Notes under the pieces: generated by a model
What the model saw: the letters and a program-made list of their open reading frames with translations, nothing else
The model's database searches: none
Told to the model about the DNA's origin: nothing
Assembly (NCBI GenBank): GCA_050239825.1
Contig: JBFXGO010000002.1
Location: 817 to 64,816 of the forward strand
DNA from: a bacterium
Lineage (GTDB): Bacteria > Hydrothermota > 32-111
Length of the DNA stretch: 64,000 nt
Direction: 5' to 3'
Shown: piece by piece, positions 1-56,373 of the stretch
How the letters are laid out: each line of letters starts with the position of its first letter
Position numbering within the stretch: position 1 is the first letter of the stretch
Made by a program: the position numbers and the translations under genes

Positions 1-292
1 TATATTTTAAGCCGTCAGCATAAATTTGACAATAAAGGTTTTTGGGCCATCTTCATTAAGATAAATCCGCTCTCCTGAATGAAATTATACTACTATTTTC
101 AGCAACTTTTAAGTGGCTTCAGTATAGTATTAACCCTATTGAAAAATCATACATTTTTTGAAAAAGTATCAGATTTTCTCTCTTATCATTTATTTAGAAC
201 ACATATTTGTCTATTTTAAATCTAAACCAAATGCCCTTCGGGCATGCCGATTATAAATTCAGAACCAAGGGTCAAAGAGCCAAGAACCAAGA

Positions 293-1228
293 TTATTCTG
301 AGGCGGCGCACCGGAACCCGTTACCGTAGTACATGTTGGCCGGATTACCGGAGTTGCGGTAGGCAGTGCGTATGCCGTAGCCATTGCCGCGCCACGAGCT
401 GCCGCGAAAAACTCTATAAGAACCACTGCTCGGGCCCTTTGGATTCTTGTATTCACTGGTTCTGTAATAACTCTCTCCATACCAGTCATTACTCCATTCC
501 CATACATTACCTGACATATCATAACACCCATAAGGACTCCTGCCTCTCTCATAACTCCCTATCGGTGATGTGTATCTGTAGCCATCTTCTGTTCCAGTAT
601 AATTGCATCTGTTTGTCCCAGGTTCTCCATCTCCCCAGGGGTACTTCCGAGAGTCCGTCCCCCTCGCCGCCTTCTCCCATTCCGCCTCTGTGGGTAACCG
701 TAATCCCGCCCAAGCACAATATGCCTTCGCATCATTCCAACTGACATTTACTACCGGATACTCCGGATAATTCGTGAAATAATAACTCGTTCCGTTAAAT
801 CCCGGATCTGGTGGGTAGCTCCTCCCTGTCTCGTCGCAGAACTTCTTATACTGTTTGTTTGTCACCTCATATTTCATCATATAGTACCCGTCAAGGTAAA
901 CTTTATGCACCGGCTTCTCGTCATCTTCTCCGCTCTCGCTTCCCATTGTAAACTCTCCCGCTGGTATGTATATCAAAACACTTCCGTCTTTATTATTTAT
1001 ATATTCTTTATAACCATATTCATTTGTTTTAAGGTATGTTTTTTTATAATAATCTATGATAATATTTCTTAAATCTACAGAAAGGATTACTAATAAAACT
1101 GTTAAAATTACTATCCATTTTACTTTATTAAGTTTCTTCCTTTTCTTATACTCTTCAGATTCTTTATACTTTGTTAACAGCTCGTCGTATATTTTTTGGC
1201 TTTTTGAATTTAAATTTTCTTTTAGCAT
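293..1228 (-). CDS. Membrane protein with a short Lys-rich cytoplasmic N-terminus, one TM helix and an extracytoplasmic non-catalytic FGE-sulfatase (SUMF1-like) domain; paralog A
   Basis: ORF translation carries FGE-sulfatase hallmarks (NVSWNDAKAYCAWAG, GNVWEWSNDWYGESYY, RVFRGSSW). Only one Cys sits near the C-terminus (FRCAASE), so the catalytic Cys pair of true FGE is absent. Hydrophobic stretch KWIVILTVLLVILSV follows a KK-rich N-terminus. Confidence 0.75.
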   Translation of the reverse strand: MLKENLNSKSQKIYDELLTKYKESEEYKKRKKLNKVKWIVILTVLLVILSVDLRNIIIDYYKKTYLKTNEYGYKEYINNKDGSVLIYIPAGEFTMGSESGEDDEKPVHKVYLDGYYMMKYEVTNKQYKKFCDETGRSYPPDPGFNGTSYYFTNYPEYPVVNVSWNDAKAYCAWAGLRLPTEAEWEKAARGTDSRKYPWGDGEPGTNRCNYTGTEDGYRYTSPIGSYERGRSPYGCYDMSGNVWEWSNDWYGESYYRTSEYKNPKGPSSGSYRVFRGSSWRGNGYGIRTAYRNSGNPANMYYGNGFRCAASE

Positions 1229-1234
1229 TTAATC

Positions 1235-4200
1235 TTATTCAAGCATTTTTATTAGTTCACCTGTATTCTTTATTCTCTTTTCTGCATCTTTTGCCAAACA
1301 GCCCTTTATTATATCTTTCATTTTTTGTTCCATATCATCATATTTTGGTTCTTCATATAAAACCTGTGTTGACAAAGCAAAAATATCCTCTCCTTCAAAA
1401 GGTAACCTTCCGGTTGACATTTCATACATCATTACTCCCATCGCCCATATATCCGCCTCTTTTCCTATTTCAATCTTTTCGGTGCGTGACATTGATTTCT
1501 TATATTGCTCTGGTGAAGCATAAGGGAATGTAAAATCGCCGCCTGTCGATGTAGTAGCTCCAAGAGTTTCCAGCTTTGCCGACCCAAAATCCGCTATTTT
1601 AATCATACCTTTTGAATTGAACATTATGTTTTCCGGTTTCAAATCTCGGTGAATCACTCCATTTTCATGTGCATAATTCAACCCCTTCAATATTGGTATT
1701 ATATAATTTTTCATCTGATCATATACCAAGCGCTCATGCTTTTTCAATTTGTTTCTCAAACTTCCATCATTCATATAATCCATTACATAATAGAAAAGAT
1801 CTTTTTCCATTCCTTCTTCAAATATCCTTATTATATTCTCATGATTCATCTTCTTCATCGCCTGTATTTCATTTTTAAAGTGCATAAGCTTTTTTTCGTC
1901 TTCAATTGTGGTATATGAAACTTTTATAGCAACTTCTTTGTTGTCTCTTATGTCTTTGCCAAGATATACTATCGCCTGACCGCCACCTCCCAATTTTTTT
2001 ATCTTGACATAATTACTGCCAAACCTTTCATTTTCCAGCAGAGACAGCCTTTCATTTACATCCTTGTAATTAATATCCACTACAGCAATTTTTTCCAACA
2101 CACCCTTTGCTCTGTCAAAGTCCCCCTTGTTCCATAAATCCAAAGCCAACATGTATTCTGTCTCTATGTTATCCTTCTTATCTTCGTATTTTGATGAAGT
2201 ATTTTCCTTTAAATTGTTTAATTTATTAATTCTTTCGTCTATGTCTTCAAATACAAAATCTATTGATGCGATTTTTTCATACAACCATTTTGCATAAGAA
2301 TATCCTCCATATTCTTCAAACATTCTAGCGATTCTGTAATACTCTTTTTTGTTCTCCTTGAGTGGCAAATGATTATTTAAAAGCATCTTTACATGTTCCA
2401 TTGAAGCTTCCATATATCCAGTCTTCATCAAAGTATTTACAAGCAATTTCCTTGCTTCAATTTTATATTTTTCATTGTCAATTAACTCCTGCAGCAGTAT
2501 GATGGCATTTTTTGTGAATCTAATGTTTTTCATATAGAGTTTCACAAGCTTCATTTTCAACTCTTCTTCCGTCATTTTATTTGCATATTCCATCTCATCC
2601 CTATCAAGATTACTCTCTTTTACAGGAGAGGCCTCATTAAAGGAATGCCCTGTCACATGCGCAAGTGCTTTGCGATTAATCCAGATTAACATTGATAATA
2701 TCTTCCCTTCTATTGTTTCCTTTAGGCCTAATCCATCTCTATCTGCGGTCATCTCTGCAAATTCTCGCGCTTCATAATAATTTTCATCTTGAATACAAAT
2801 CTTAATATGCAATAGAATGTCATCATATTTTGCACTTTGCCTGTCAACTATCTTCTTTGAGTATTTATACGCGCCGATTATATCTTTGCTTCTAAGTGCT
2901 TCATTCCTCAATATATAGTTTATTTTATGATTTTTAGATTCCTTTTTCTCCAATTCCCTGCACAGCAGTAATGCCATTTTTTTGTATGCCTCTACTTCAG
3001 AATACTTCTCAAGTATTAATTTCACAATGTTTTCCGATGATGCAATGCTATCCAATCTTGTTTCCAACACTGATATGAATGCCATATCTTGAACATTCTT
3101 AGATAAAAGTAAGTATGTTATTCTTTGGAATATAACTTCATTTGAATTACTTTTAATAGACAAATTTTTATGAAACAGAAGAATGAGCTGATTTGGTTGT
3201 AAGACTTTCAATGCGGCTTCATCAAAATATTCCGCATCGAGTTGGTTCTCAAGTGCGATATTCAAATAATTAAATGAGTCATCATCACTAAATCTCATAT
3301 TATTTGCTTTAATTGACTTCATCAATAAAGGCAGATTATTTTTATCCTTTTTTCGGTTAAATTCATTTAAGATATCCATCAATAAGTTAATATCATCCAC
3401 AAATATTCTGCCGACAGGCGAGTCTTTTAGCTTCAATACTTCATTGATAAATTCTCTGTTTTCAGAAAGGATTGATATGTTTTCAGCTATCCATTCATTT
3501 ATATTGTTTGCAAATAATAGTATTTTGATTAGACTTGTCATGTCATTTGTTTTCAGCAATTCATCAGCTATACTCCTGTAGTTTTCATATCTATTATTGT
3601 TTTTTATTATCCTATCTATCAATTCAGAGTAATTTACTTTATTCTTAACTGAAATTTCTGTTGAAAACAAAAGCAATTCATCATCTTCGTCATCAGAATT
3701 TAAGATCCTTTCATTCAACATCTTTATTTTGTTACCATCTTCTGCCTCATCAAATGATTTATACAAATTAATAATTGCTGATTTATTATTTTTTATATCT
3801 ATGATTGATAAATAATTTTCAAGCGTTTTATGTGTCGGAACGCCTCCATCCTTACATTCATAAACAAATTCCACCATAGTTGCTATTTCTTTACGCTTAT
3901 TAAATTTATTGAGAACGTCCAAAAGATTCTTTATACTTTCTTTTGAGAAAGTTTTTATACTGTCAGGTTCAACAACTAAAGCGTCTAATAAATTTTCACA
4001 GATATTGGTATTCTCTGACGATAGAATCGCCTCCAACTGCAGAAGCATTCTATCATCCAACCAAATGTCATCCTTGATTTCATACACATTGCTAAAAATA
4101 AATTTGACATTTCTGTTATCTGATAAAATCTTGTTTATTATTGATATTATCAACGGAGAGTATTTCCTGTTTATGCATTCTTTTAGAATTATCAGTAATG

Positions 4201-4711
4201 TTCTATCCTTGAAATGTAGCGAATTGTCTAAAATACTTTTATTGAATGATTTAAGTTCATCTAAACCTATTTCACTTAAAACCTTTTCTATTTCAATGAA
4301 ATCATTTAATCCGTCAGCGAAACTGATTTTTGCCAAGGTTGTAGTGGGGACAAATGATATACTATTTAAATACTTAAAATCACTTACATTTTTTGCCATT
4401 GAGAAAATATCGTTTTCATAGTAGTCTTTACTTATCCACGATTCCTTTGAAAATAAACGCGTAAGCTTTTCAAAGTTTTTTTCTTCTTTAAGATATTCTA
4501 TCAACCGTGAGAGTGCCTCGATTTTCCATTCAGCGTTCTTTAAATTAGAAATTTGATAGTAAGTGGAAATTGCCTCTTCAACTTTGTTGTCATTAATTTC
4601 TAAGATAAATCGCTTGTGAAGAAAATCGAATGATTTATTTCTATCATACTTACGATTGAAATAGATAATTATTATATAGGTTAAAAACAAAAGGATGGAT
4701 AATATAAGCAT
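1235..4711 (-). CDS. Membrane-anchored Hanks-type Ser/Thr protein kinase. N-terminal TM helix, then about 850 aa of uncharacterised helical region, then a C-terminal kinase domain.
   Basis: C-terminal kinase motifs: GGGGQAIVYLGKD...VAIK (Gly loop and Lys), HRDLKPENIMF (catalytic loop), IADFGSAK (DFG), PYASPEQ (APE-like). N-terminus MLILSILLFLTYIIIIYF is hydrophobic. Confidence 0.85.
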   Translation of the reverse strand: MLILSILLFLTYIIIIYFNRKYDRNKSFDFLHKRFILEINDNKVEEAISTYYQISNLKNAEWKIEALSRLIEYLKEEKNFEKLTRLFSKESWISKDYYENDIFSMAKNVSDFKYLNSISFVPTTTLAKISFADGLNDFIEIEKVLSEIGLDELKSFNKSILDNSLHFKDRTLLIILKECINRKYSPLIISIINKILSDNRNVKFIFSNVYEIKDDIWLDDRMLLQLEAILSSENTNICENLLDALVVEPDSIKTFSKESIKNLLDVLNKFNKRKEIATMVEFVYECKDGGVPTHKTLENYLSIIDIKNNKSAIINLYKSFDEAEDGNKIKMLNERILNSDDEDDELLLFSTEISVKNKVNYSELIDRIIKNNNRYENYRSIADELLKTNDMTSLIKILLFANNINEWIAENISILSENREFINEVLKLKDSPVGRIFVDDINLLMDILNEFNRKKDKNNLPLLMKSIKANNMRFSDDDSFNYLNIALENQLDAEYFDEAALKVLQPNQLILLFHKNLSIKSNSNEVIFQRITYLLLSKNVQDMAFISVLETRLDSIASSENIVKLILEKYSEVEAYKKMALLLCRELEKKESKNHKINYILRNEALRSKDIIGAYKYSKKIVDRQSAKYDDILLHIKICIQDENYYEAREFAEMTADRDGLGLKETIEGKILSMLIWINRKALAHVTGHSFNEASPVKESNLDRDEMEYANKMTEEELKMKLVKLYMKNIRFTKNAIILLQELIDNEKYKIEARKLLVNTLMKTGYMEASMEHVKMLLNNHLPLKENKKEYYRIARMFEEYGGYSYAKWLYEKIASIDFVFEDIDERINKLNNLKENTSSKYEDKKDNIETEYMLALDLWNKGDFDRAKGVLEKIAVVDINYKDVNERLSLLENERFGSNYVKIKKLGGGGQAIVYLGKDIRDNKEVAIKVSYTTIEDEKKLMHFKNEIQAMKKMNHENIIRIFEEGMEKDLFYYVMDYMNDGSLRNKLKKHERLVYDQMKNYIIPILKGLNYAHENGVIHRDLKPENIMFNSKGMIKIADFGSAKLETLGATTSTGGDFTFPYASPEQYKKSMSRTEKIEIGKEADIWAMGVMMYEMSTGRLPFEGEDIFALSTQVLYEEPKYDDMEQKMKDIIKGCLAKDAEKRIKNTGELIKMLE

Positions 4712-4712
4712 C

Positions 4713-6842
4713 TTAAACGCTCTTGAATAATTTACAATTTAACGCATCTTGAACTTCAGCAACATTATCAAATCTTTCTTCTTTTTTCTTGGCAAGGCAT
4801 TTTTTAACTATCATTACCAAATCATCATCCAATTCTGGGTTGATAAGTTTTGGATTCGGAATTTCTGCATCTCTGTGCATTAATGGAAGTTTATACACTT
4901 CATCTGGCACATACGGTGGAAATTTAACCAGCATGAAATACATTATTCCCCCCAGTGCATATATATCTGTCCTGTGGTCAACTTCTTTAGGATTAAAAAA
5001 CTGTTCCGGAGAGGAAAAGTAGGGAGTTCCAATGAAAGCAGTTGATTTTGTAAGTTTCAGAGAGCCGCTTGATGAAGTTGATGAAGCTGAAACTCTTGCA
5101 AGACCAAAATCTGTGATTACTGGAGATAAATCTTTTTTTATTATGATGTTATCCGGTTTTAAATCTCTATGAATGATTCTGTTGGGTTGATTGTGTATAT
5201 AATCCAGAGCACTGCAGATGCCGCAAGTGATTTTCAAAAAATCTTCTCTGTTGATAAAGCCCTGATTCTTTATGAATTCAGACAAAGAGACTCCGTCTAT
5301 GTATTCCATTACAAATAAATATTTATCCTCCCACAGCGCGTCATCGAGAATCTTAATGATGTTGGGATGATTAAGCCCGCTCATAACCTTTACTTCCCTG
5401 CGAAATCTTTCAACTACAATGGGATCTACACTAAGTGATGGCAATATTTCCTTTATGGCTACTTTTTTTCCTGTCTTAATTTCCTCACCCAGGATAACTC
5501 TTCCAATGCTTCCTCCTCCTATTTCTTTCTGAAATTTGTACTTATCCCAAAAGGTTTCCATGAGGCCTGACTTCTTTGGGTTGGAGAGTTCCTTAAATAT
5601 TTTAGAATCTATGGTTTCAGCCCTTTTAAGACAGAGCTTTTCTTTATCAAGCGTTCCTTTACTTATATAGGCCTTCGAGAGATTAACCAGCAATTCTATT
5701 ACTTCCTTAAGTTCGTATTTTTGCAGGTCTTTTTTTAATTCAGCATCTGTTAATTTATCCATCAGAGAAAATGATACATCCAGATTGCCTTTTTCAAAAA
5801 ACACTCTTGCCTTTAAAATTTCTATCTTCAAATTCATCTCTTTCACATCTTTAATCTTTTGCAGACACATAAGGCTTTTATCAAGGGCGCCCTGATTAAG
5901 ATAGATTTCCGCCAACGCATAATTTGCTTTATCATTAGAGTTATTAATCGCCAATGCTTTTATGAAACACTCGCTTGCTTTTTCTATATTTCCTGTCTTT
6001 TGATAGCATAACCCTTTTATAAAATATCCGTCAGAATTATTTTTATCTTCATCCAGAATCGAATCCATGAGCTTTATTACTTCAGAATACATGCCCTTTT
6101 TAAGATAGATATTTACAATCTCCTTTTTAGTTTCTACATTGAGATTACCACTTTCAAGGGCTTTCTTATAAAAATGCAGTTGAAAGCTCTCGTCGAAGGG
6201 ATTGTTTTTTGCTGCTTTTATATAAGCTTCTTGGGCTTTTTTAAAATCTCCTTTCTTTTCATAAAGTTCGCCTATTCTTTCATAGGCAAATCTGTTTGTT
6301 TTATCAATATTTATTGCTCTTTCATAGTATTCTATGGCTTTTGATTCCTGCCCTGTTATATAGAATATATTTGCTATTTTTGCCGATACTTCATGAGAAG
6401 CACCTTCTATCTTTTCCAATTTCAACAGACAATCCAATGCTTCCGAGTATGCCTGTTTTTTAATAAATTCCTCCGAAAGTTTGTCATATACAATTTTTAT
6501 GCTCTCTTCAATTTGCCTTTTGTATATGTTGTCACCCCCTATCAGTTCAATTTCCTCTATGGCATTTTCAAATGCTGTTTTAGCCCTTTCAAAGCTTCCT
6601 GATTGCATTAAATCATTAGCGTTTTTTATTTTTATCTCTATATTTTTCTTTTTCTCGTCATACTCTCTTCTCTTTCTTTCCCGCTCTTCATTAATTGCGG
6701 AAGAATCAATATAGTCTCTGTCGGAATTTGAATGTCCGTCATTTCTATTTTTATTTATCATATTTGAAGCAACTGTTGCTCCTGTGCCGAAAGCGGCTCC
6801 GGCAATTGCATATCCAATTACTACGGCGAGTAATTCCCACAT
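4713..6842 (-). CDS. Membrane-anchored Ser/Thr protein kinase with TPR repeats. N-terminal TM, TPR region, C-terminal kinase domain.
   Basis: Kinase motifs: GGGSIGRVILGEE, VAIKE, HRDLKPDNIII, TDFGLAR, GTPYFSSPEQ. Repeated TPR-like A/Y/F periodicity (AIEYYERAINID, AQEAYIKAAKNN). N-terminal hydrophobic segment WELLAVVIGYAIAGAAFG. Confidence 0.85.
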   Translation of the reverse strand: MWELLAVVIGYAIAGAAFGTGATVASNMINKNRNDGHSNSDRDYIDSSAINEERERKRREYDEKKKNIEIKIKNANDLMQSGSFERAKTAFENAIEEIELIGGDNIYKRQIEESIKIVYDKLSEEFIKKQAYSEALDCLLKLEKIEGASHEVSAKIANIFYITGQESKAIEYYERAINIDKTNRFAYERIGELYEKKGDFKKAQEAYIKAAKNNPFDESFQLHFYKKALESGNLNVETKKEIVNIYLKKGMYSEVIKLMDSILDEDKNNSDGYFIKGLCYQKTGNIEKASECFIKALAINNSNDKANYALAEIYLNQGALDKSLMCLQKIKDVKEMNLKIEILKARVFFEKGNLDVSFSLMDKLTDAELKKDLQKYELKEVIELLVNLSKAYISKGTLDKEKLCLKRAETIDSKIFKELSNPKKSGLMETFWDKYKFQKEIGGGSIGRVILGEEIKTGKKVAIKEILPSLSVDPIVVERFRREVKVMSGLNHPNIIKILDDALWEDKYLFVMEYIDGVSLSEFIKNQGFINREDFLKITCGICSALDYIHNQPNRIIHRDLKPDNIIIKKDLSPVITDFGLARVSASSTSSSGSLKLTKSTAFIGTPYFSSPEQFFNPKEVDHRTDIYALGGIMYFMLVKFPPYVPDEVYKLPLMHRDAEIPNPKLINPELDDDLVMIVKKCLAKKKEERFDNVAEVQDALNCKLFKSV

Positions 6843-7639
6843 TATAGCTCCTTCTTTCTTTTATTAACTGAAAGCAATTTGAACATTCTCCTGAAAGTAG
6901 GAAAATAGTCTTTAGGTTTATCCTTCTTTTCCATTTGGACAACTACTGCAGTGATATTATCTTCCCCTCCGGTTTCATTTGCTAAATCAATCAGATTCTT
7001 GACAGATTCCAAACCATTTTTTGAAACAATCTCCAAAATTTTCTCATCGTCGACCATATTGCTAAGTCCGTCCGAACAGAGCAAGAAAAAATCACCTATA
7101 TCATAATTTTCGATAAGTTTAATTTCACAAGAGTTATTACCCTTTGGATTACCAAAATACTTAGATATTATATGTCGCCAAGGATGCTCTTTTGCCTCTT
7201 CTTCAGTAATTTTCTTGTTTCTCAGCAGTTCGGCAATCATTGTCTGGTCGTGTGTCAATTGAGTTATCTTCCACTTTCTCTTCCTTTTGCTTATCTGGTA
7301 TATTCTGCTGTCGCCTAAATTTAATGTAACGATGCCCTTCATAGATTTCATCAACAGTACAAGCGTAGCACCCATTTTGTGGTATTTAGGATCGCTTTCG
7401 CCAGTTTTTACCAAAAGGTCATTTGTTATCGTACAAATTTGTGACAAATCAGTTTTTTTATTGTCAACTATTTCTTTTATAAACGAATTTATCACCATTT
7501 CACTTGCAACTTCACCCGAGTTGTGTCCTCCCATGCCATCCGAAACCATGTAAAGACAAATATCATCATTGATATAAAATTTGTCTTCATTATTCTCTTT
7601 TATTTTACCGATGTCAGTTAATCCCTTTGCTTTCATCAT
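6842..7639 (-). CDS. PP2C-family (PPM) Ser/Thr protein phosphatase
   Basis: PP2C motifs: LTDIGKIKENNEDKF, VSDGMGGHNSGEVAS, LCSDGLSN, ETGGEDNITAVVV. Start overlaps the stop of the upstream kinase gene by 1 bp. Confidence 0.85.
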   Translation of the reverse strand: MMKAKGLTDIGKIKENNEDKFYINDDICLYMVSDGMGGHNSGEVASEMVINSFIKEIVDNKKTDLSQICTITNDLLVKTGESDPKYHKMGATLVLLMKSMKGIVTLNLGDSRIYQISKRKRKWKITQLTHDQTMIAELLRNKKITEEEAKEHPWRHIISKYFGNPKGNNSCEIKLIENYDIGDFFLLCSDGLSNMVDDEKILEIVSKNGLESVKNLIDLANETGGEDNITAVVVQMEKKDKPKDYFPTFRRMFKLLSVNKRKKEL

Positions 7640-7751
7640 TCTCCTCTTTAATATTATATATTTTACTTTTTTAAATTATAAAGTCAACAATAATTGTGAA
7701 TTGTTTCTAATCTAAATTTAGAATCAATTATCAAAGAGCCAAGGACCAAGA

Positions 7752-8783
7752 TTATTCTGAGGCGGCGCACCGGAACCCGCCACCGTCGATCACGAAGGCC
7801 GGGTCAATGTTGCCGCGGTCGGCAGTGCGCATGTTGCCGACACCGCCGTACCACGAGCCGCCGCGAAGAACTCTTTCTGAGCCGCTATTCGGCCCCTTAG
7901 GATTCTTGTATTTACTGGTTCTGTAATAACTCTCTCCATACCTGTCATTACACCATTCCCATACATTACCTGACATATCATAACAGCCATAAGGACTCCT
8001 TCCATTCTCATAGCTTCCTACTGGGGATGTGTATTTGTAGCCGTCCTCTGTTCCCTCATAATTGCATCTGTTTGTTCCGGGGTTTTCATTACCCCATGGG
8101 TATTCCCTGCCATCCGTTCCCCTTGCCGCCTTCTCCCATTCCGCCTCTGTGGGTAACCTTAAATCCGCCCAATCGCAATATGCCTTCGCATCATTCCAAC
8201 TGACATTAACTACAGGATAATCTGGATAACTTGTAAAATAACTGCTCATTCCGTCAAATCTCGGTTCTGGTGGGTAGCTCCTCCCCGTCTCGTCGCAGAA
8301 CTTCTTATACTGTTTGTTTGTCACCTCATATTTCATTATGTAATACCCGTCAAGGTAAACTTTATGCACGGGTTTTTCGTCATCATAATCCCAGCTCCCC
8401 ATTGTAAACTCTCCGGCTGGTATATATATCAAGACACTCCCGTCTATCGAATTTTCATATTCATCATATCCGTTTGCATTCCTTTTTATTAGTGTTAGTG
8501 TTCTGGTAGAGACATTTAACATTAGATTAATAAATACTATGAATCCAATCAATAAGAGTCCAATAAAAAAACCTATTCTGTCAAACTCAAGAATGTTGAA
8601 CTTTAAAATAACCAGAGATACTAAGATATATAAGACCGGAAATGTAAAATTTATCAACCACTTAATTCTATTTACTTTCATCCTATTTTTAAACTCTTCA
8701 GATTCTTGATATTGAGTCAACAGCTCTTCATATCTTTTTTGGATTTCTTTGTCTAAATTAACTAAGTTTGTCATTTTATCCAT
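7752..8783 (-). CDS. Membrane protein with extracytoplasmic FGE-sulfatase (SUMF1-like) domain; paralog B
   Basis: Same motifs as 293-1228 (NVSWNDAKAYCDWAD, GNVWEWCNDRYGESYY, RVLRGGSW). Has two internal hydrophobic segments rather than one. Conserved cytoplasmic N-terminal motif YEELLTQYQESEEFKNR matches YDELLTKYKESEEYKKR in paralog A. Confidence 0.75.
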   Translation of the reverse strand: MDKMTNLVNLDKEIQKRYEELLTQYQESEEFKNRMKVNRIKWLINFTFPVLYILVSLVILKFNILEFDRIGFFIGLLLIGFIVFINLMLNVSTRTLTLIKRNANGYDEYENSIDGSVLIYIPAGEFTMGSWDYDDEKPVHKVYLDGYYIMKYEVTNKQYKKFCDETGRSYPPEPRFDGMSSYFTSYPDYPVVNVSWNDAKAYCDWADLRLPTEAEWEKAARGTDGREYPWGNENPGTNRCNYEGTEDGYKYTSPVGSYENGRSPYGCYDMSGNVWEWCNDRYGESYYRTSKYKNPKGPNSGSERVLRGGSWYGGVGNMRTADRGNIDPAFVIDGGGFRCAASE

Positions 8784-8988
8784 AAATTTCAGATTGCCAG
8801 GTAATTGTTGTTTTCACTTCTGTTTCCTAAAGTTAAAACTAAAGATAAAGAACTCCACATTGATTTTGGGAAAAAATCTTTCCCCCTATATACCTTTTTA
8901 AAACCTCCAATAATCCCATTTGTCTCCTTATGTTTAAATTGATTTTAATACTTTAATTTAAAAAGTCAATAATGATTAAATAAGTGAA

Positions 8989-9020
8989 TAATGGTTATTG
9001 GCAAAATAAAAGTTAACCGC
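8989..9020. repeat. Copy 1 of a 32-bp direct repeat (TAATGGTTATTGGCAAAATAAAAGTTAACCGC). Copy 2 lies at 9831-9862.
   Basis: 31/32 identical direct repeats about 840 bp apart, bracketing the gene fragment at 9284-9712. Confidence 0.6.
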
Positions 9021-9171
9021 TAATTTGATAGTTTTTCTTTGAATTAGAGTTTATTTTAAACCTCACTTATTTAATTTTTTGTGAGGCTTTATCAATCTCA
9101 TATCTCACGTATAATTTTTCTTTGACAATGTCCCATTCTGCCAGAACAAAGTAATTTATATACGATGACAA

Positions 9172-9241
9172 TAAAAAGGGGGCAGGGTGACAAGAGTTCT
9201 GAGCTTTCGCCCAAACTATGATTTTGAGTCTGCACCTGCCC
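9172..9241 (-). terminator. Possible minus-strand rho-independent terminator with a long interrupted stem (GGGCAGGTG...CACCCTGCCC), followed by a T-run on the minus strand
   Basis: Inverted repeat GGGCAGGGTG / CACCTGCCC. On the minus strand it is followed by CCTTTTTAT. Lies downstream of the minus-strand ORF 9284-9712. Confidence 0.3.
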
Positions 9242-9283
9242 TTATTTATATTTTATTCATTATTAAATAATTTTCAAGAGCAG

Positions 9284-9712
9284 TTATTCAATAATTTCCC
9301 AGTATCCCAATTTATCACTGCCTATTCTTTTTATTTTGCCTTCACTCTTAAGTTTGCTTATGTTCCACTCAATGCCCCTTCGTGAAAGACCTATCACCAC
9401 TTCAAGTTCTTTAATTGTTATATTTGGTTTTTGTCTGATTGCAGAGATGATTTTCTCCACAGTTTTCTCCACAATTTTCTCCGAACTCTGCATATTTTTT
9501 CTTTTGAATGTCACTAAAAAGAAATCTCCAACTTCTTCAAAAGTAGTTTCTGATTCTAATTTCATTATCTTACCGATTCCTGTTCCCCATTTTTCTATAT
9601 ATTTAATTCTATGGAAAATTTCAGAAATTAGTTCATTTCTCCGTATTGAAATCACTGCTTCCTTTAATTGAGTAAGAGACTCTTTGAATTCCAATGTTTC
9701 TGTTTCTTTCAT
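9284..9712 (-). pseudogene. C-terminal fragment (HATPase_c_4-like plus winged-HTH) of a Schlafen/AlbA_2-type putative DNA-binding ATPase. The N-terminal domain is missing.
   Basis: KYIEKWGTGIGKIMKLESETTFEEVGDFFLVTFKRK resembles the C-terminal module of divergent-AAA/AlbA_2 family proteins. Only 142 aa. Flanked by 32-bp direct repeats. Confidence 0.45.
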
Positions 9713-9830
9713 TTAGTTTAAAACCATTTATTATAGATTTAATCTCCTTCTGATCGCCCTAATATTCAATTTATTTTATCACGAAACATACAAAATGCAA
9801 GGAAAAAAACAGTTGGGAGAAAAACATCCC

Positions 9831-9862
9831 TAATGGTTATTGGCAAAATAAAAGTCAACCGC
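9831..9862. repeat. Copy 2 of the 32-bp direct repeat
   Basis: TAATGGTTATTGGCAAAATAAAAGTCAACCGC. One mismatch to copy 1. Confidence 0.6.
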
Positions 9863-9877
9863 GGGGGAATTGATTTT

Positions 9878-10456
9878 TATGCCGAGAAAGCCTAAAATAA
9901 GAGGAATAAAACAGAAAGGAGAGTATGTAAAAAAAAAAGGATTAAAATACGTCAAAGGGATAACGGAATGTATTTTGAGGAAGGGGAAACGAAGTGTTAT
10001 ATAGCGAGGAAAACAGGAATGAGCAAGAACTTTGTGATAAGATGGACCCAATCAAGGGATCAGGATTTTACAGAGGATAACAGAGGGTGGGAGAAGGGCA
10101 AGATGCGTAAAAGGGAGAAAGACACAACTTTTATTATACTCCCCAAAAAGGTATCAAGTTTTATAGGCATAAACTCGGCAATTAAGAAGTCAGGCAAGAG
10201 TGTTAACGGCAATGGCAAAATAAGCAAAATGGGTAACAGTTATGTGAGAAAGATGTTTATGATGGGAGCCAGAACCGCAATAAACTCCAATGTTGGCTGT
10301 AAGGCGATGAACGAACGGTTGACTGCAAAGGATAAAGCATACAGAGTCAGAATGATAGCTGTCGGTCATAAACTTTTAAGACAGGCATTTGCTGTTGCTA
10401 AACAGGGTGTTAAATATAATCTTGATATTTACAATACTGTTATGCGAACCTCTTGA
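9878..10456 (+). mobile_element. Decayed mosaic transposase remnant. IS630/Tc1-like HTH N-terminal pieces in two frames, plus an IS110-family-like C-terminal segment.
   Basis: MPRKPKIRG ORF runs to a stop after about 50 codons. A second frame carries YIARKTGMSKNFVIRWTQ (HTH_Tnp-like). The C-terminus SKMGNSYVRKMFMMGARTAINSN...AKDKAYRVRMIAVGHKLLRQAFAVAKQG resembles the conserved IS110 transposase C-terminal region. No intact transposase is present. Confidence 0.5.
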
Positions 10457-10595
10457 CAAAAAGCACAGTACATGCTGAACGCCTCTATTCATTTCTCTAC
10501 AGTGAAGCAACTATCAATCCGCTAATTGCGATCGGATTTTGTCTTCTCTTCTTCTTCGAACCCGCAACTCGAAACTATTAACTTCCTTTTTGCTT

Positions 10596-10760
10596 TGCCC
10601 GCAGCACACGGTGTGCAAAGCACTCTTGCCCCCGGAATCTTCTTCAACTCTCAACTATAAACCATTAACTGTTTTTTCTTGCTCACAGCTCACGGATTAT
10701 GGCGTCTTCACTGCCCACAGCACAAGGCACATGGTGTGCGAAGCACTCTTGCCCCCGCGG
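10596..10760. repeat. Two direct copies of a GC-rich hairpin-containing motif (GCACACGGTGTGCAAAGCACTCTTGCCCCCG), 117 bp apart
   Basis: 10599-10632 and 10716-10757 share about 30 bp. Each contains the palindrome GCACAC-G-GTGTGC or GCACAT-G-GTGTGC. Confidence 0.45.
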
Positions 10761-10801
10761 CGTTGAATAATGTCATTTATTCCCCGACTGATTTAATCTC
10801 C

Positions 10802-10831
10802 ATTTTATTTTAGTCGCGACCAAAATAAAAT
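10802..10831. promoter_or_regulatory. 30-bp near-perfect palindrome ATTTTATTTTAGTCGCGACCAAAATAAAAT immediately upstream of a consensus promoter. Candidate operator or element end.
   Basis: The reverse complement differs at 2 of 30 positions. The central GTCGCGAC is itself a palindrome. Confidence 0.4.
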
Positions 10832-10847
10832 AAGCTTTAGTTTAGCC

Positions 10848-10875
10848 TTGACATAACCCGACTATTGCATATAAT
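10848..10875 (+). promoter_or_regulatory. Sigma70-type promoter. TTGACA, 16 nt spacer, TATAAT. Only 6 nt separate the -10 element from the ATG, so the transcript is possibly leaderless.
   Basis: Exact consensus hexamers at 10848-10853 and 10870-10875. ATG at 10882. Confidence 0.5.
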
Positions 10876-10881
10876 GAAATC

Positions 10882-12084
10882 ATGAAAAGAAATCTGTATA
10901 CAAATGCGCTTAACAGTATAGTGGATGATAAGAAAATTCTTCTGGTCACGGGAGCTCGTCAGTCAGGAAAGACAACAATAGCCAAACAATTTATGGATAA
11001 TTTTAAGAATGGCATTTATTTTAATTATGATTCAGATAGAAAATACCTCCTTAATAATCCAAGATTCTATGAGGAACAGAACAAAGTTGACGATTCGCCT
11101 CTTCTTGTTGTCTTTGACGAACTGCATAAATATAGAAGTTGGAAGACCTACATGAAGGGAAATTATGACAGAAACAGGGACGATTTCAGATATCTCGTCA
11201 CTGGAAGCGGAGACCTTAACATATCTTATAAAACGAAGGAATCACTGGCGGGAAGATTTGAATTGATTCATGTTTTCCCATTCACATTGAATGAGTTTTT
11301 CAATCGGTGTTCTTATGACGAATTTTTCAGCAATCCGATCGGAATGCCGGGCAGTTTAGGCAGTAGAAATTCATTTGATACAATGAATGGCTTACTTAAT
11401 ATCTCGCCGTTTCCGGAGCCGTTTTTGAAATCATCGAAACAGTTTTATAAGAGATGGTCAAAATCATACTTCCCGCAGATTATAAATATTGACTTAAAAT
11501 ACAGCGCCGTTTTTCATGAACTGGATAAACTGGAGACGCTTTTTGATATTCTTTCATTAAAAGTGTGCTCCGGATTTTCATATAGCAATGTGGCAAATGA
11601 CATTGAAGTCTCGCCGCCTACAGTGAAGCAGTGGATGAAGCTTCTTGAGAGTCATTTTTTGACATTCTCGTTAGCCCCTTACGGCAAATTCTCGCGCACC
11701 ATTAAAAAGCAGAGAAAGGTTTATTTATATGATTACGGAAGAATAGAGAACGAATCATCGAAATATGAGAATTTTGTCGCATTGGAACTTTTTAGGTTTG
11801 TTAAGAATGCAAATGATTTTGGAGAATCCGTAAACATGTTTTATGTTAAGGACAAAGATCAAAGGGAAGTGGATTTCATCATAACTTATAACGGAAAACC
11901 GTTTTTACTTATTGAAGCTAAAGAAAACGATGAGGATACAAAAAATTTAAAACATTTTCAAACTATATTTAAAATTCCTGCAGTTCTTTTGGTAAGAAAA
12001 TCTGGGATTCACAAACTCTTAACCAATGGTGAACACAAAATCACAGTAATATCAGCCGACAAATTCCTTTCAACTCTTCCTTGA
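10882..12084 (+). CDS. AAA-family ATPase with C-terminal DUF4143-like domain (COG1373-type ATP-binding protein)
   Basis: Walker A LVTGARQSGKTT. Walker B-like VVFDELH. Overall architecture typical of the AAA_14/DUF4143 family. Confidence 0.8.
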   Translation: MKRNLYTNALNSIVDDKKILLVTGARQSGKTTIAKQFMDNFKNGIYFNYDSDRKYLLNNPRFYEEQNKVDDSPLLVVFDELHKYRSWKTYMKGNYDRNRDDFRYLVTGSGDLNISYKTKESLAGRFELIHVFPFTLNEFFNRCSYDEFFSNPIGMPGSLGSRNSFDTMNGLLNISPFPEPFLKSSKQFYKRWSKSYFPQIINIDLKYSAVFHELDKLETLFDILSLKVCSGFSYSNVANDIEVSPPTVKQWMKLLESHFLTFSLAPYGKFSRTIKKQRKVYLYDYGRIENESSKYENFVALELFRFVKNANDFGESVNMFYVKDKDQREVDFIITYNGKPFLLIEAKENDEDTKNLKHFQTIFKIPAVLLVRKSGIHKLLTNGEHKITVISADKFLSTLP

Positions 12085-12982: not shown

Positions 12983-14080
12983 TTAAATTAAAGTAATCTT
13001 TGATGAATAGATGATTTTTTTATTATCAAATATTTTTACAAAATATATCCCGTTATTAAGAAACTTAATTGAAAACTCTTTTGTTTTCACTTCACTTCTA
13101 AGCAAGACTCTTCCTGAAACATCCGTAATTGTTATCTTCACAGATAAATGTTCATCAATAGAATTAATAAAAAGGATTCTCTCCTTCATATCAAATACTG
13201 CGCAGGATTTCCTCTCCTTAGAAGGTTTAAGAGCAAAATCCTCCTGCAGATTCATCCACGGGAAGTAGATTCTTCTGGCAAGAGTTGTATCTATTATGAA
13301 TGGATTCGGTTTATTCTGCTGATAAGTCGCTATTTTGTTTGTGCGCCACAATTCCCTTGCATCAACCGGTTCCCTGTAATGCCATGCAAGAAGAGTATCT
13401 ATCTGTTCTTTCCAGAATGATGTGTCGGAATCAAGGGCGATATACTGGGATTTATACATCGTATAAAAGTAAAACATTGAGCGGGATGCGTTTCCCTTGT
13501 GATCTTCGCGCGGTTCAAACCTCACTCCGGTTAAAAGCTCACTGTAAAAGTTAATGTTTGATGTCGGTATTGAAGTTATATATGAATTATTATAGTACCA
13601 CTTGTTTGTTGATGCGTCGGATATCTCACCGAACGGCAGGTTCCCCCTTGCAGAATTGACATCAATCTCTGTCGGATACAAATGATGAAGATCTCCCTCT
13701 CCAAGACCCGAAGCGCCCAATGACTGTGGCCATGTGTGTTCGCAGTTGATGCCATTATTGTAAGCATATGTGGAGGGGTCCTGACCTGCAACCATATAGA
13801 CCGAGTATGCAGAATAAACACAGGTCAGGTAACCGTCTATCTTGTCTATAACTCCATAGAGAGTGTCCCTTCCTGCATCATATCCCAGATTTGAGCTTGA
13901 CTTATAGTACTTTACAACAGAATCAGCCAAAGCAGAGCCTGTGACTCCCGGAAAGAGTATATCTTCATAAGAGAGGAGAGCCACTAAGAGCAATGATACA
14001 AGAAATATTTTTTTCACATTATATATGATAATGTTTTTTTTCGGTTTGGCAATAGATATGTAAACTAATGTCTCATCCAT
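12983..14080 (-). CDS. Secreted endonuclease I family (EndA/NucM-like) nuclease with a C-terminal type IX secretion sorting domain
   Basis: CEHTWPQSLGASG...DLHHLYPT matches the endonuclease_1 family core. C-terminal ~80 aa (ITITDVSGRVLLRSEV...NGIYFVKIFDNKKIIYSSKITLI) has T9SS CTD character. N-terminal signal-like hydrophobic segment. Confidence 0.7.
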   Translation of the reverse strand: MDETLVYISIAKPKKNIIIYNVKKIFLVSLLLVALLSYEDILFPGVTGSALADSVVKYYKSSSNLGYDAGRDTLYGVIDKIDGYLTCVYSAYSVYMVAGQDPSTYAYNNGINCEHTWPQSLGASGLGEGDLHHLYPTEIDVNSARGNLPFGEISDASTNKWYYNNSYITSIPTSNINFYSELLTGVRFEPREDHKGNASRSMFYFYTMYKSQYIALDSDTSFWKEQIDTLLAWHYREPVDARELWRTNKIATYQQNKPNPFIIDTTLARRIYFPWMNLQEDFALKPSKERKSCAVFDMKERILFINSIDEHLSVKITITDVSGRVLLRSEVKTKEFSIKFLNNGIYFVKIFDNKKIIYSSKITLI

Positions 14081-14287: not shown

Positions 14288-15157
14288 ATGGCAAAATTCC
14301 TTATCATTCAAAATCCTGTGGCAGGAAACGGGTCTTCCGTTGAATATCTCCCCGAAATAATTTCAACAATCGAAAGATTGAAAATTCCTTATGTTTTAAA
14401 AAAGACATCTGAGAAGTTTGATGCGCAAAAACATGTCAAAGAGTGGATGACTCCGGATATCACAGATATTGTTGTTGTCGGAGGAGACGGAACTCTAAAT
14501 GAAGTTGTGAATGGGTTATATCCGCATCTGAAGCCGATACGGCTGATAAGCACGGGCACAGGGAATGACCTCGTGAAAAATCTGAAAGATTACACAATGG
14601 ACAATCTATTTCTCACAAATGATTTTCATGCAATAGATTTGTTTACAGTAAATGACACTGTCGGGATAAATGCGCTCGGACTGGGTTTTGACGGAGAGGT
14701 TGTAAGCGAGATGGATGAAAAAAACCTCAAAATAAACGGAATGTTCGCCTACATGATTTTTGTTCTTTCCAAGCTCTTTAAATTCCGCGCTCCGCGGTAT
14801 CATATAACTGCTGATGGTATAGATTACAGGGGAAAATACTACATTACATGCGTGGGAAACGGAAAAGCTGTCGGAGGGGGATTTTTCTTGACTCCCAAAG
14901 CGCACATTGAAGACGGAAATCTTGATATTTGCCTCATCAGTGACATTCCTATGATTTTAAGACCCTATTATCTTATTAAAGTCATGATGAAAATACATCC
15001 CGGAGATAAAAAGGTTATTTATAAACAGTTCAAAGAGATGATTATAAGAAGTTCAAGAAATATTATGGGGCAGGTTGACGGTCAGCTTGTAACAGGCAAA
15101 GAATTTGTTGTGAAGATTGTAAATGAAAAACTTCATATAGTCTCCCACAAACACTGA
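14288..15157 (+). CDS. Diacylglycerol/lipid kinase catalytic-domain protein (DAGK_cat; YegS/BmrU-like)
   Basis: IVVVGGDGTLNEVVNGL motif and overall length and architecture of the DAGK_cat family. Confidence 0.8.
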   Translation: MAKFLIIQNPVAGNGSSVEYLPEIISTIERLKIPYVLKKTSEKFDAQKHVKEWMTPDITDIVVVGGDGTLNEVVNGLYPHLKPIRLISTGTGNDLVKNLKDYTMDNLFLTNDFHAIDLFTVNDTVGINALGLGFDGEVVSEMDEKNLKINGMFAYMIFVLSKLFKFRAPRYHITADGIDYRGKYYITCVGNGKAVGGGFFLTPKAHIEDGNLDICLISDIPMILRPYYLIKVMMKIHPGDKKVIYKQFKEMIIRSSRNIMGQVDGQLVTGKEFVVKIVNEKLHIVSHKH

Positions 15158-15173
15158 TTTTTTCAATCCCCCT

Positions 15174-15672
15174 GTAAAGACAAAATCTTACTCAGCAGTG
15201 TCACCCTGAACGCTTCTATGGTTATGACTATCGTGAAGGGTCTATCAGTTTATTGCTTATTGATAATTGAAGATTGAGCTGGGGCTGCACGCGGGCATAG
15301 CGTCGACTCACACACTCCGCTTCGCCGCTTTATCAAGATGGGAAAGCGGAGCAAGGGGTCGGCCACTTGATGGGCGTCTGCGCGGAGCGTCCTCGCCGAC
15401 TTGTAGCTTTCACTTTCAATAAGTTAATTAATTGATTGTCCTCATGAGAAGCATTGAAAAGACGAGCGCTGTGGACAGGCTTCTCATTCGGAATTGTAAA
15501 GACAAAATATTAATCAGCAGTATATTGAGTTATGACTGTACTGGAATTTTTCCTCGGAACTGTAAAGGCAATTTATTTACTCAGCTCCCCGTATTATGCG
15601 CATGGCACACGGCTCATGGCTCAAGGCTGATTTTGTGGCTGCACGCTGGCATAGCGTCGGCTCACACAACAA
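15174..15672. repeat. Second locus of the mosaic interspersed repeat family. It holds module B, one full GC-rich core, module C and one truncated core.
   Basis: 15174-15420 is near-identical to 54478-54720. 15540-15672 matches 54770-54900. The array starts 17 bp after the dagK-like stop codon. Confidence 0.9.
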
Positions 15673-53254: not shown

Positions 53255-54364
53255 ATGAAATTTCACGTTGACAAACAAGAGTTTTTGAAAAACCTCAATA
53301 CAATATCAAGCATTGTTCCTGCAAAACCCATTGTAACAATAATCTCCAATATTATGATTGAAGCGAAAAAAGAGACATTGTCATTTTCCTCTACTGATTT
53401 TGAAATAACAATGCATTCAGAGATGCCTGCAACAGTCACTGAGGACGGAGTGATTGTTATAAATGCAAAGACAATAGTTGAACTTGTAAGAAAACTTCCT
53501 GAAGGCGAACTCTCAATATCTCTCTCCAATGATGAAGTATCTATAAAATCAAAGTCAGGCATTTATAAAATGCCTGTAATCAAGAAAGATGATTATGTGG
53601 AAATTTCAAGAATAGAAAAAAACAAGATGTTCAATGTTGATTCTCTTCCATTGAAATCTGCAATAGACAATTCAGTATTTGCAGTTTCCAAAGATGCCGT
53701 AAAAGTTGCAATAACCGGAGTTCTTCTTGAAGGAGCCGGAAAGAATCTGACATTTGTTGGAACAGACGGACACAGGTTGGCATTTTATTCAATCAAAGAT
53801 ATTTTTGAAAAACCCATATCAAATTCTGTTATAATTCCTCCAAAGGTTTTGACGATTCTTAGAGACCTTATTGATGATGTGGATGAATTCAGCATGGGTT
53901 TTGATGAAAAGAGAATTATGTTCAAAGTCAAGACAATAGAAGTCTGGGCAAAACTCATAGAGGGTACATATCCTGATTACAAACGAGTCATACCAACGGA
54001 TAACAATAAAGTCATGATTGTCAAAAAGGATGACCTTATAAATTCTCTTAACATAATAAATGTGTTTACAAATCCAAATACGAGGCTTGTCAAATTTGAA
54101 ATAGAGAGCGGCAAGCTTATAATAAATGCGTATCAGAATCAGACAGGAGAGGGGACGGAGTTTATCGAAGTCGACTATGAAGATAAAGAGAAGCTTGTGA
54201 TAGGATTCAACAATAACTATCTTCTTGAAATACTAAAACGGATAGAGACTGAGAATGTAAAGTTTAAATTCAAGGGAGAGATGTTTGCTGTGATAGTTGA
54301 AAACGAAATGAGCAAGGTTGATCAGGAGGCAATTTATATTATAATGCCTCTCAGATTAAAGTAA
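53255..54364 (+). CDS. dnaN: DNA polymerase III beta sliding clamp
   Basis: Three-domain beta-clamp architecture. MKFHVDKQEFLKNLNTISSIVP start. Follows dnaA. Confidence 0.95.
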   Translation: MKFHVDKQEFLKNLNTISSIVPAKPIVTIISNIMIEAKKETLSFSSTDFEITMHSEMPATVTEDGVIVINAKTIVELVRKLPEGELSISLSNDEVSIKSKSGIYKMPVIKKDDYVEISRIEKNKMFNVDSLPLKSAIDNSVFAVSKDAVKVAITGVLLEGAGKNLTFVGTDGHRLAFYSIKDIFEKPISNSVIIPPKVLTILRDLIDDVDEFSMGFDEKRIMFKVKTIEVWAKLIEGTYPDYKRVIPTDNNKVMIVKKDDLINSLNIINVFTNPNTRLVKFEIESGKLIINAYQNQTGEGTEFIEVDYEDKEKLVIGFNNNYLLEILKRIETENVKFKFKGEMFAVIVENEMSKVDQEAIYIIMPLRLK

Positions 54365-54390
54365 AAACAGATTTATATTATTGAGTGCAA

Positions 54391-54420
54391 AGAGGCGGGG
54401 TAACTCCCGCCTCTTTTATT
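54391..54420 (+). terminator. Rho-independent terminator after dnaN
   Basis: AGAGGCGGG-GTAACT-CCCGCCTCT followed by TTTATT. Confidence 0.7.
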
Positions 54421-54477
54421 GAAAATGTAAAAGAGTGAAAATATAGGAAGGTTAGAATGTGAGGGAGATTGAGTAAA

Positions 54478-56330: not shown

Positions 56331-56373
56331 CTCCTATTGACAATATTGTTTAAATATTATATATTGAAATATT

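Follow-up and report, generated by a model that had tools for sequence, protein, structure and literature searches.

A gene cluster of two Ser/Thr kinases and a PP2C phosphatase bracketed by putative targets of a diversity-generating retroelement in a Hydrothermota bacterium

Why should two membrane proteins with the fold of the formylglycine-generating enzyme (FGE) stand at either end of a cluster of Ser/Thr kinase and phosphatase genes, and what might they do for it? The question is raised by positions 293-8783 of a 64,000-nucleotide stretch of DNA, referred to below as the window, from a Hydrothermota bacterium (GTDB lineage 32-111; GenBank assembly GCA_050239825.1, contig JBFXGO010000002.1, positions 817 to 64,816). 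Five open reading frames (ORFs) lie there on the minus strand in the order FGE-B, PP2C, TPR-kinase, giant kinase and FGE-A. An earlier note, made from the letters alone, had described these ORFs with their order, domains and junctions, and Pfam and NCBIfam searches (FGE-sulfatase, Pkinase, TPR, PP2C) together with direct reading of the sequence bear out that description. The note treated the two FGE paralogues as ordinary sensors and overlooked in their C-terminal ligand-binding loops a variable-region signature of the kind written by a diversity-generating retroelement (DGR). From this signature we consider it quite probable that both FGE proteins are present or past targets of a DGR.

FGE-A and FGE-B are 65% identical overall and about 80% identical within the FGE domain. 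Seventeen of the last 37 codons (275-311 in FGE-A) differ between the two genes, and all 17 differences are nonsynonymous. Within this stretch 26 of the 28 base changes fall at codon positions 1 and 2, compared with 35 of 87 elsewhere in the domain (binomial p = 7e-9), and both positions are changed in ten codons. Synonymous codon differences are absent (0/37), compared with 34 of 170 codons upstream (Fisher p = 0.001). Because zero synonymous change lies beside scrambled sites, the backbone must have been homogenised after the paralogues diverged, which is what would be expected if one template repeat (TR) had templated both genes; a DGR would thus have acted on both after their divergence. 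Placing A at every variable site yields 12 AAY codons, and 27 of the 28 differences are compatible with adenine mutagenesis. The predicted backbone of the cognate TR, with A at 27 variable sites, is ...CGCGGC(A/G)GCTCGTGG AAC NNC AAT GAC AAC AAC ATA CGC ACT GCC AAC CGC AAC AAC AAT AAY CCG GCC AAC ATG AAC AAC NNT AAC GGGTTCCGGTGC.

The variable sites were also compared with the TRs of two related, verified DGRs (L001 and L095), heterologous templates used with the cognate TR absent from the 64-kb window. Against each of them 18 of 26 A sites are variable versus 9 of 61 non-A sites (p = 1.3e-6). The conservation continues beyond the coding region. Approximately 40 nt past each FGE stop codon are near-identical, and a 33-nt exact repeat spans the end of the variable region (VR) and the stop (0 expected by chance). 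The same post-stop element is conserved downstream of the closest homologue, the gene P0010 from another WOR-3 organism. In the window this element has a TCTTGG/TCTGAA motif, and comparable TCTG(R)-periodic sequence flanks the verified VRs of L001, L095 and L131; on this comparison the element is a candidate DGR target-recognition element of the kind found on the side of the initiation of mutagenic homing (IMH). Periodic TCTG(R)/TCTTGG motifs are found 3' of verified or likely DGR VRs in L001 (7457-7530 and 10748-10820), L095 (1115-1190), L131 (4707-4780), L086 (~7321-7390) and L082 (~10888-10950), and this periodic flank may be a target-site element specific to the clade.

The proteins that carry these loops match the Pfam FGE-sulfatase family with E values of 6e-61 (FGE-A) and 2.5e-63 (FGE-B). 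An AlphaFold2 model of FGE-A (predicted local distance difference test score, pLDDT, 92.6) matches FGE structures in Foldseek with TM-scores of 0.70-0.75 and the DGR target TvpA with a TM-score of 0.71; the match to PorK is weaker. The catalytic cysteine pair is gone, as had been claimed: the human FGE stretch around C336 and C341, MCHRSYCYRYR, aligns to RGNGYGIR in FGE-A, and FGE-B has YGGVGN at the CxxxxC stretch of Cys336/Cys341. This replacement supports the reading that the two are non-catalytic binding modules and not enzymes of the FGE kind. The source record labels both genes 'formylglycine-generating enzyme family protein', a label that is misleading in both cases and matters for annotation. 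In the public annotation FGE-B starts at Met35 (309 amino acids) and so loses an N-terminus that is conserved in the FGE-A tail. Identity with the GldK/PorK components of the type IX secretion system (T9SS), which the earlier note had named as a refuting outcome, was rejected: TIGR03525 has a cut-off of 350 bits, and the two proteins score 100.3 and 107.9. They also lack a lipoprotein signal, their N-termini consisting of charged tails followed by transmembrane (TM) helices, with no lipobox.

The N-terminal tails are conserved between the paralogues and are strongly basic beside the first TM helix, and that of FGE-A contains several Ser, Thr and Tyr residues (SKSQKIYDELLTKYKESEEY). FGE-B has a second TM helix, created by an insertion of about 30 residues relative to FGE-A. 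Given the basic tails (by the positive-inside rule) and the one versus two TM helices, the lectin domain of FGE-A is probably outside the cell and that of FGE-B probably in the cytoplasm. Both domains had been placed outside; by this simple estimate the claim is probably right for FGE-A and is not established for FGE-B.

Both kinases match the Pfam Pkinase family (E 1e-57 for the giant kinase, 2e-48 for the TPR-kinase), and the catalytic motifs read in their translations are complete: LGGGGQ/VAIK/HRDLKPEN/DFG/SPE in the giant kinase and IGGGSIG/VAIK/HRDLKPDN/DFG/SPE in the TPR-kinase. A hydrophobic stretch forms the start of each protein and leads into basic residues, which by prediction places the remainder of the kinase in the cytoplasm, in agreement with the membrane anchoring proposed earlier. 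A profile search matched TPR families in the 709-residue kinase. PASTA repeats are found in neither protein (209 and 224 bits against NF033483, with a cut-off of 450). The N-terminus of the TPR-kinase is nearly invariant in its orthologue, P0180, and this favours the long ORF. The public annotation starts the gene at Met28 (682 amino acids), which cuts off the hydrophobic anchor that P0180 conserves; from this comparison the shorter NCBI start is likely wrong. The known defence kinases PD-T4-6 and MADS mad6 were considered and rejected as identities for the two proteins, as the PADLOC and NCBIfam matches are limited to the generic kinase domain; the mad6 NCBIfam scores are 130-134 bits with a cut-off of 460, and there are no MADS partner genes nearby.

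The region that precedes the kinase domain of the giant kinase has few relatives. Matches from a word-indexed search with the N-terminus were confined to kinase domains, and an exhaustive search of 1.84 billion representatives with residues 1-890 gave weak matches only, to residues 687-889. Residues ~20-690 (~670 amino acids) have no detectable homologue among these representatives besides a partial gene in a metagenomic contig (L166) described below, and are predicted to consist entirely of short helices. A single-sequence AlphaFold2 model of residues 1-890 is all-helical and of low confidence (pLDDT 50.7).

The phosphatase matches PP2C_2 (E 3e-14; 53.3 bits, cut-off 24) and PP2C (36.7 bits, cut-off 20.3), and its metal-binding motifs DGMGGH, LGDSR, CSDGL and GEDN are intact. 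It scores 201.7 bits against the Stp1/IreP equivalog, under the cut-off of 230. By these profile scores the product is a member of the family, and we do not call it an Stp1/IreP equivalog. At the C-terminus (window 6842-6930) the protein ends in the basic/aromatic sequence KDYFPTF(R/N)(R/K)(M/L)F, a tail that the L166 orthologue conserves as well and that may be a membrane- or partner-binding helix.

Read directly, the junctions consist of a 112-nt gap between FGE-B and PP2C, a 1-nt overlap (TAATG) between PP2C and the TPR-kinase, a 1-nt spacer between the two kinases and a 6-nt spacer between the giant kinase and FGE-A. No terminator-like hairpin was found on the minus strand across the cluster besides the one after FGE-A. 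Given the three tight junctions and this sole hairpin an operon is a reasonable call, and PP2C through FGE-A is a tightly coupled unit. FGE-B probably belongs to the same transcription unit as well; however, a promoter-like site lies in the 112-nt gap, so it may be transcribed separately. The features of the locus are collected in Table 1.

Table 1. Features of the five-gene locus and its flanks, with positions in the window.
Feature	Position	Strand	Length	Description
FGE-A	293..1228	-	311 aa	~38-aa charged tail; one TM helix 39-57; predicted non-catalytic FGE/C-type-lectin domain 85-308
Giant kinase	1235..4711	-	1158 aa	TM anchor 1-19; ~870-aa orphan region, predicted all-helical; Hanks kinase domain 901-1148 (window 1268-2011)
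TPR-kinase	4713..6842	-	709 aa	Hydrophobic anchor 1-22; TPR region ~130-400; Hanks kinase domain 435-692; Ser/Thr-rich activation loop
PP2C	6842..7639	-	265 aa	
FGE-B	7752..8783	-	343 aa	~42-aa charged tail; TM helices ~42-63 and 70-90; predicted non-catalytic FGE/C-type-lectin domain 118-340
Variable codons 277-303 of FGE-A	320..400	-		Within VR-like stretch 293-406; paralogue comparison
Variable codons 309-335 of FGE-B	7779..7859	-		Within VR-like stretch 7752-7865, with a backbone identical to that of FGE-A; paralogue comparison
Conserved non-coding element 3' of FGE-A stop	254..292	-		TCTTGGTTCTTGGCTCTTTGACCCTTGGTTCTGAATTTA; counterpart of 7713-7751
Conserved non-coding element directly 3' of FGE-B stop	7713..7751	-		TCTTGGTCCTTGGCTCTTTGA...TTCTAAATTTA; common to FGE-A and WOR-3 gene P0010
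Terminator-like hairpin 3' of FGE-A	231..245	-		ATGCCCGAAGGGCAT, then T-rich run
Promoter-like site upstream of FGE-B	8942..8969	-		TTGACT-16-TAAAAT; consensus match only
Promoter-like site in FGE-B/PP2C gap	7660..7687	-		TTGACT-16-TAAAAT; consensus match only; possible internal promoter

We compared 160 FGE loci fetched with FGE-A from species-representative genomes and metagenomes. The best match with genomic context is L001, from a WOR-3 metagenome-assembled genome, with an FGE domain at 64% identity. This locus is a complete DGR comprising Avd (7545-7895), a TR (7911-8041) and a YMDD reverse transcriptase (8621-9691), and in its two VRs 25 of 26 and 17 of 19 mismatches are adenine-specific. 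The targets are a Pkinase-TM-FGE fusion (648 amino acids; 5513-7459) and a standalone zinc-ribbon-FGE protein. Across the whole set a Hanks kinase occurs within the flanks of 16 loci, and in 13 of these 16 kinase, TM segment and FGE domain form one ORF. Such Rosetta-stone fusions support the view that Hanks kinases and this FGE clade are functionally linked, in line with the connection that the earlier note had drawn.

Unfused arrangements were found as well. In L082 a PASTA kinase precedes a PEGA-FGE protein, and the order in L086 is FGE, PASTA kinase, four-helix-bundle protein, FGE, FGE, uncharacterised gene and kinase; the unfused FGE gene adjoining the PASTA kinase there carries a DGR-type VR. 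The WOR-3-type loci L001 (581-10750), L082 (237-10888) and L086 (4197-15444) share a recurring neighbourhood of PASTA/LEA_2 proteins, a PASTA kinase, PEGA-FGE, an FHA-FHA-ABC transporter, a 23S_rRNA_IVP four-helix-bundle protein and kinase-TM-FGE fusions. Given this recurrence, FGE proteins are embedded in Ser/Thr phospho-signalling clusters in WOR-3-type relatives too. Neither the N-terminus of the giant kinase nor the tails of the window FGE proteins have a homologue in the 160 loci.

The kinase side of the cluster was traced separately. P0180 (61% identity) is the single real orthologue of the TPR-kinase, and on its 3.5-kb contig (L166; SRR13007709) it is preceded by a PP2C orthologue (57%) and followed by a third, helical gene, whose product has a TM anchor at its start and aligns weakly but collinearly with the N-terminus of the giant kinase (25%, E 1e-9). 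Judged by these similarities, the core of PP2C, TPR-kinase and giant kinase is conserved in at least one other organism, on a contig whose flanks are cut so that FGE genes beside the trio cannot be seen. Conservation of the full five-gene neighbourhood, which the earlier note had put forward as a check, was not found among the loci compared, and the three-gene core alone recurs.

These observations can be joined in a model of the cluster as a Ser/Thr phospho-signalling cassette, made up of PP2C and two Hanks kinases and bracketed by two catalytically dead FGE/C-type-lectin membrane proteins. Each kinase would be pinned to the membrane by its N-terminal anchor and extend into the cytoplasm as a large scaffold of helical repeats. 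A DGR would have written the C-terminal binding loops of both FGE proteins, and the two lectin proteins, FGE-A probably facing outward and FGE-B probably facing the cytoplasm, would serve as receptors with hypervariable ligand-binding sites. Whether ligand is bound would be signalled along the conserved cytoplasmic FGE tails or the TM segments to the TPR/helical scaffold of each kinase, triggering autophosphorylation and substrate phosphorylation, with PP2C resetting the system. We infer the coupling of FGE proteins to kinases from the fusions in relatives and from the operon structure. The composite, in which DGR-written lectin receptors are coupled to both kinases and PP2C erases the signal, is on balance the account that we favour, and we hold it to be somewhat probable. 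A more particular form of it, in which the binding site of FGE-A outside and that of FGE-B in the cytoplasm make a two-sided receptor pair that feeds one shared kinase/phosphatase module through the tails, with specificity rewritten in trans by a remote retroelement, is speculative and seems to us doubtful.

A number of points weigh against the composite model and the DGR assignment on which it draws. The assignment rests on the comparison of the paralogues and on heterologous TRs, and adenine mutagenesis does not account for one of the 28 differences (T/C at the third position of codon 295). The window contains no TR, reverse transcriptase or Avd detectable by relaxed blastn, position-weighted scoring of 104 fixed sites (best non-self score 45/104), a YxDD scan, or tblastn with the reverse transcriptase and Avd of L001, and a degenerate TR/VR pattern gave 0 matches in viral contigs. 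The edge of the window is only 292 nt past the FGE-A stop; the retroelement is either elsewhere in the genome, working in trans, or was lost at some time after its last rewriting of the two VRs. The nearest FGE relative, P0010 (L161-L165), stands beside a restriction-modification pair and a full-length AlbA_2/HATPase_c_4 gene, with no kinase, PP2C or DGR nearby. The P0010 protein is identical in eight contigs from several samples and so is not visibly diversifying, and when its cluster was searched for VR variants no other protein came up, the start-codon call being the sole difference. No kinase is present in 144 of the 160 FGE loci, and PP2C is present in none (0/160). Additionally, the FGE-B/PP2C gap contains a promoter-like site, so that FGE-B may be transcribed separately, and the topology comes from a hand-made hydropathy and positive-inside estimate and not from a trained predictor.

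Several of these points would also fit other explanations. The FGE proteins could be DGR-diversified binders used for adhesion or capture, similar to TvpA, that only happen to sit beside an unrelated kinase/phosphatase operon in a variable region. P0010 and the kinase-free, PP2C-free majority of related loci are what such an arrangement would produce, mobile-element debris (an IS110 fragment and a truncated AlbA_2-type gene) lies just upstream, and cellular DGR targets are mostly regarded as proteins that bind external substrates while anchored in the membrane (bioRxiv 10.1101/2020.04.01.020958). However, only 6 nt separate the giant kinase from FGE-A and no terminator occurs before position 245, two FGE copies bracket the cassette, fusions with Hanks kinases recur in the FGE clade (L001, the nearest DGR, has one), and a pure adhesin would not need the conserved cytoplasmic tails. 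We therefore regard mere proximity as unlikely. The changes in the VRs, for their part, might owe nothing to a retroelement and have arisen, once the gene was duplicated, through ordinary diversifying selection that acted on a binding loop, perhaps together with gene conversion at the 3' end. Selection on point mutations does not predict paired changes at positions 1 and 2 in ten codons with zero synonymous change, nor the inferred ancestral AAY run, the coincidence with A positions in related TRs, or a conserved non-coding 3' element common across organisms. We find this explanation extremely improbable, even with no TR or reverse transcriptase found in the window and one difference that does not fit adenine mutagenesis.

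Two further readings accept the diversified lectins and assign the cassette another purpose. DGR-diversified C-type lectin (CLec)/FGE sensors have been proposed in kinase- or NTPase-regulated conflict systems, including target pairs of opposite topology (PMC7159879, PMC10907252), and by analogy the lectins here could sense antigens of phage or other invaders, one lectin in the periplasm and the other in the cytoplasm, with the kinases as effectors that cause growth arrest or abortive infection through mass phosphorylation and PP2C as a safety catch. The five proteins and their immediate neighbours contain no vWA, MoxR or STAND/GTPase core of the ternary or STAND conflict systems (Kaur et al. 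2020), and within the cluster Pfam and NCBIfam searches found no vWA, MoxR, STAND NTPase, caspase, TIR or effector-associated domain. Both kinases match the PD-T4-6 and mad6 models only over the generic kinase domain, and the PADLOC matches reflect the kinase fold alone. No toxin-like effector is present, and the organism is not known to be multicellular. A neighbouring AAA_14/DUF4143 gene that matches PDC-S01, and the position of P0010 in a restriction-modification island, do point towards defence; a defensive role nevertheless appears distinctly unlikely. The signal might also run from the inside out, the kinases and PP2C phosphorylating and dephosphorylating the Ser/Thr/Tyr-rich FGE tails to control surface binding or clustering, with no signalling from FGE proteins to kinases. 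The several Ser, Thr and Tyr residues in the conserved tails and the predicted co-transcription of the FGE genes with the kinase/phosphatase pair would allow this. However, the Pkinase-TM-FGE fusion of relatives has the layout of a classical receptor kinase; we consider inside-out control very unlikely. Coupling of DGR-written lectins to both kinases remains the reading that we prefer.

The surroundings of the cluster contain several other elements. Within the 500-nt leader upstream of FGE-B is a 26-codon ORF (MGLLEVLKRYIGGKIFSQNQCGVLYL; 8839-8919, minus strand) with an AAGGAG ribosome-binding site, which may be spurious. Just upstream of FGE-B (9284-12084) are a truncated HATPase_c_4/HTH (AlbA_2-type) gene, a fragment of an IS110-family transposase and an AAA_14/DUF4143 ATPase, the last with a match to PDC-S01, a candidate defence family in PADLOC. 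This region looks variable or scarred by mobile elements. A homologue of Endonuclease I (12983-14080, minus strand) has a T9SS C-terminal sorting domain. Because of this domain we infer that the organism carries a T9SS, which is consistent with an FCB-group/WOR-3-like origin. Positions 15062-15668 and 54361-56366 contain families of non-coding direct repeats (~240-300 nt, 60-93% identity, 5-6 copies) with the common core CATGGCTCA(C/T)GGCTCATGGC. These repeats have no Rfam match and may be lineage-specific intergenic elements; Rfam and tRNA scans of the 64-kb window found nothing. In L161 a similar 84-nt repeat containing CCATGAGCC occurs on both sides of the P0010 gene (~3902-3985 and 5992-6075).

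DGR-diversified fusions of lectin and Ser/Thr kinase have been catalogued by genomics; we found no experimental test of them, and nobody has shown the effect of the variable domain on the kinase. A naturally split version, with a small gene of its own for each of receptor, kinases and phosphatase, makes the question tractable, since interactions between the parts can be measured, receptors can be swapped or deleted and the kinase can be read out directly. If the two-sided form of the model were true, it would be a bacterial example of an 'antigen-receptor plus signalling kinase' system built from separate modules. If the opposite topology holds, a single signalling module would use programmable receptors to monitor both compartments, conceptually near to eukaryotic receptor-kinase immunity.

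How far does the locus resemble systems that are already known? Hanks kinase and PP2C are encoded together in PknB/Stk1-Stp1 operons as they are here, and the window PP2C is most similar to Stp1/IreP. Unlike those of PknB/Stk1-Stp1, the window kinases are without PASTA repeats, and they have an N-terminal anchor and a C-terminal kinase domain. FGE itself (SUMF1 and bacterial FGE) shares the fold of the window proteins, with 33-36% identity in structural alignment. However, the copper-binding Cys pair of the enzymes is absent in the window, and the stretch in which it lies is the variable region of the window proteins. PorK and GldK belong to the same FGE-sulfatase superfamily, and the window organism carries T9SS cargo, but the window proteins score far under the family cut-off, have no lipoprotein signal and give a weaker structural match.

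Other likenesses are found among DGR targets. TvpA of Treponema denticola (PDB 2Y3C) is, like FGE-A, a standalone FGE fold without catalytic cysteines, and remote targets of its DGR are known (PMC5758913). TvpA differs in being a lipoprotein, in lacking both a cytoplasmic tail and linked kinases, and in a sequence similarity lower than that to true FGEs (E 7e-17 versus 2e-41). Paired DGR targets with CLec domains on opposite sides of the membrane have been reported in Thiohalocapsa PB-PSB1 (PMC10907252). As in the window, these are paralogous CLec targets in which the number of TM helices predicts one cytoplasmic and one periplasmic sensor, and one of the PB-PSB1 targets carries a Pkinase domain (L074). 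In contrast to the window genes, the PB-PSB1 targets sit in MoxR/vWA or STAND NTPase conflict systems with the DGR adjacent.

Published precedent is also provided by the Ser/Thr kinase-CLec (STK-CLec) targets. FGE-sulfatase CLec proteins are the largest class of DGR targets, one class (b12) bears kinases, and some targets lie over 100 kb away from the reverse transcriptase (PMC5758913). Cyanobacterial targets most often have the STK-CLec architecture, with standalone CLec paralogues beside it (PMC7517822). Together with these published kinase-CLec targets, the unfused FGE-kinase clusters in L082 and L086 make the earlier description of the arrangement as undescribed too strong. STK-CLec targets (PMC7517822; b12 of PMC5758913; L001 5513-7459) resemble the window genes in their FGE/CLec clade, C-terminal AAY-type VR, Hanks kinase partner, membrane-spanning layout and standalone CLec paralogues alongside. 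In the window, by contrast, kinase and lectin are separate polypeptides and the lectin genes bracket the cassette, there is no reverse transcriptase, Avd or TR within 64 kb, and the cassette has two N-terminally anchored kinases with TPR/helical scaffolds as well as a PP2C. The locus is thus an unfused, PP2C-containing, two-kinase version of the known kinase-CLec DGR-target theme and not a categorically new system.

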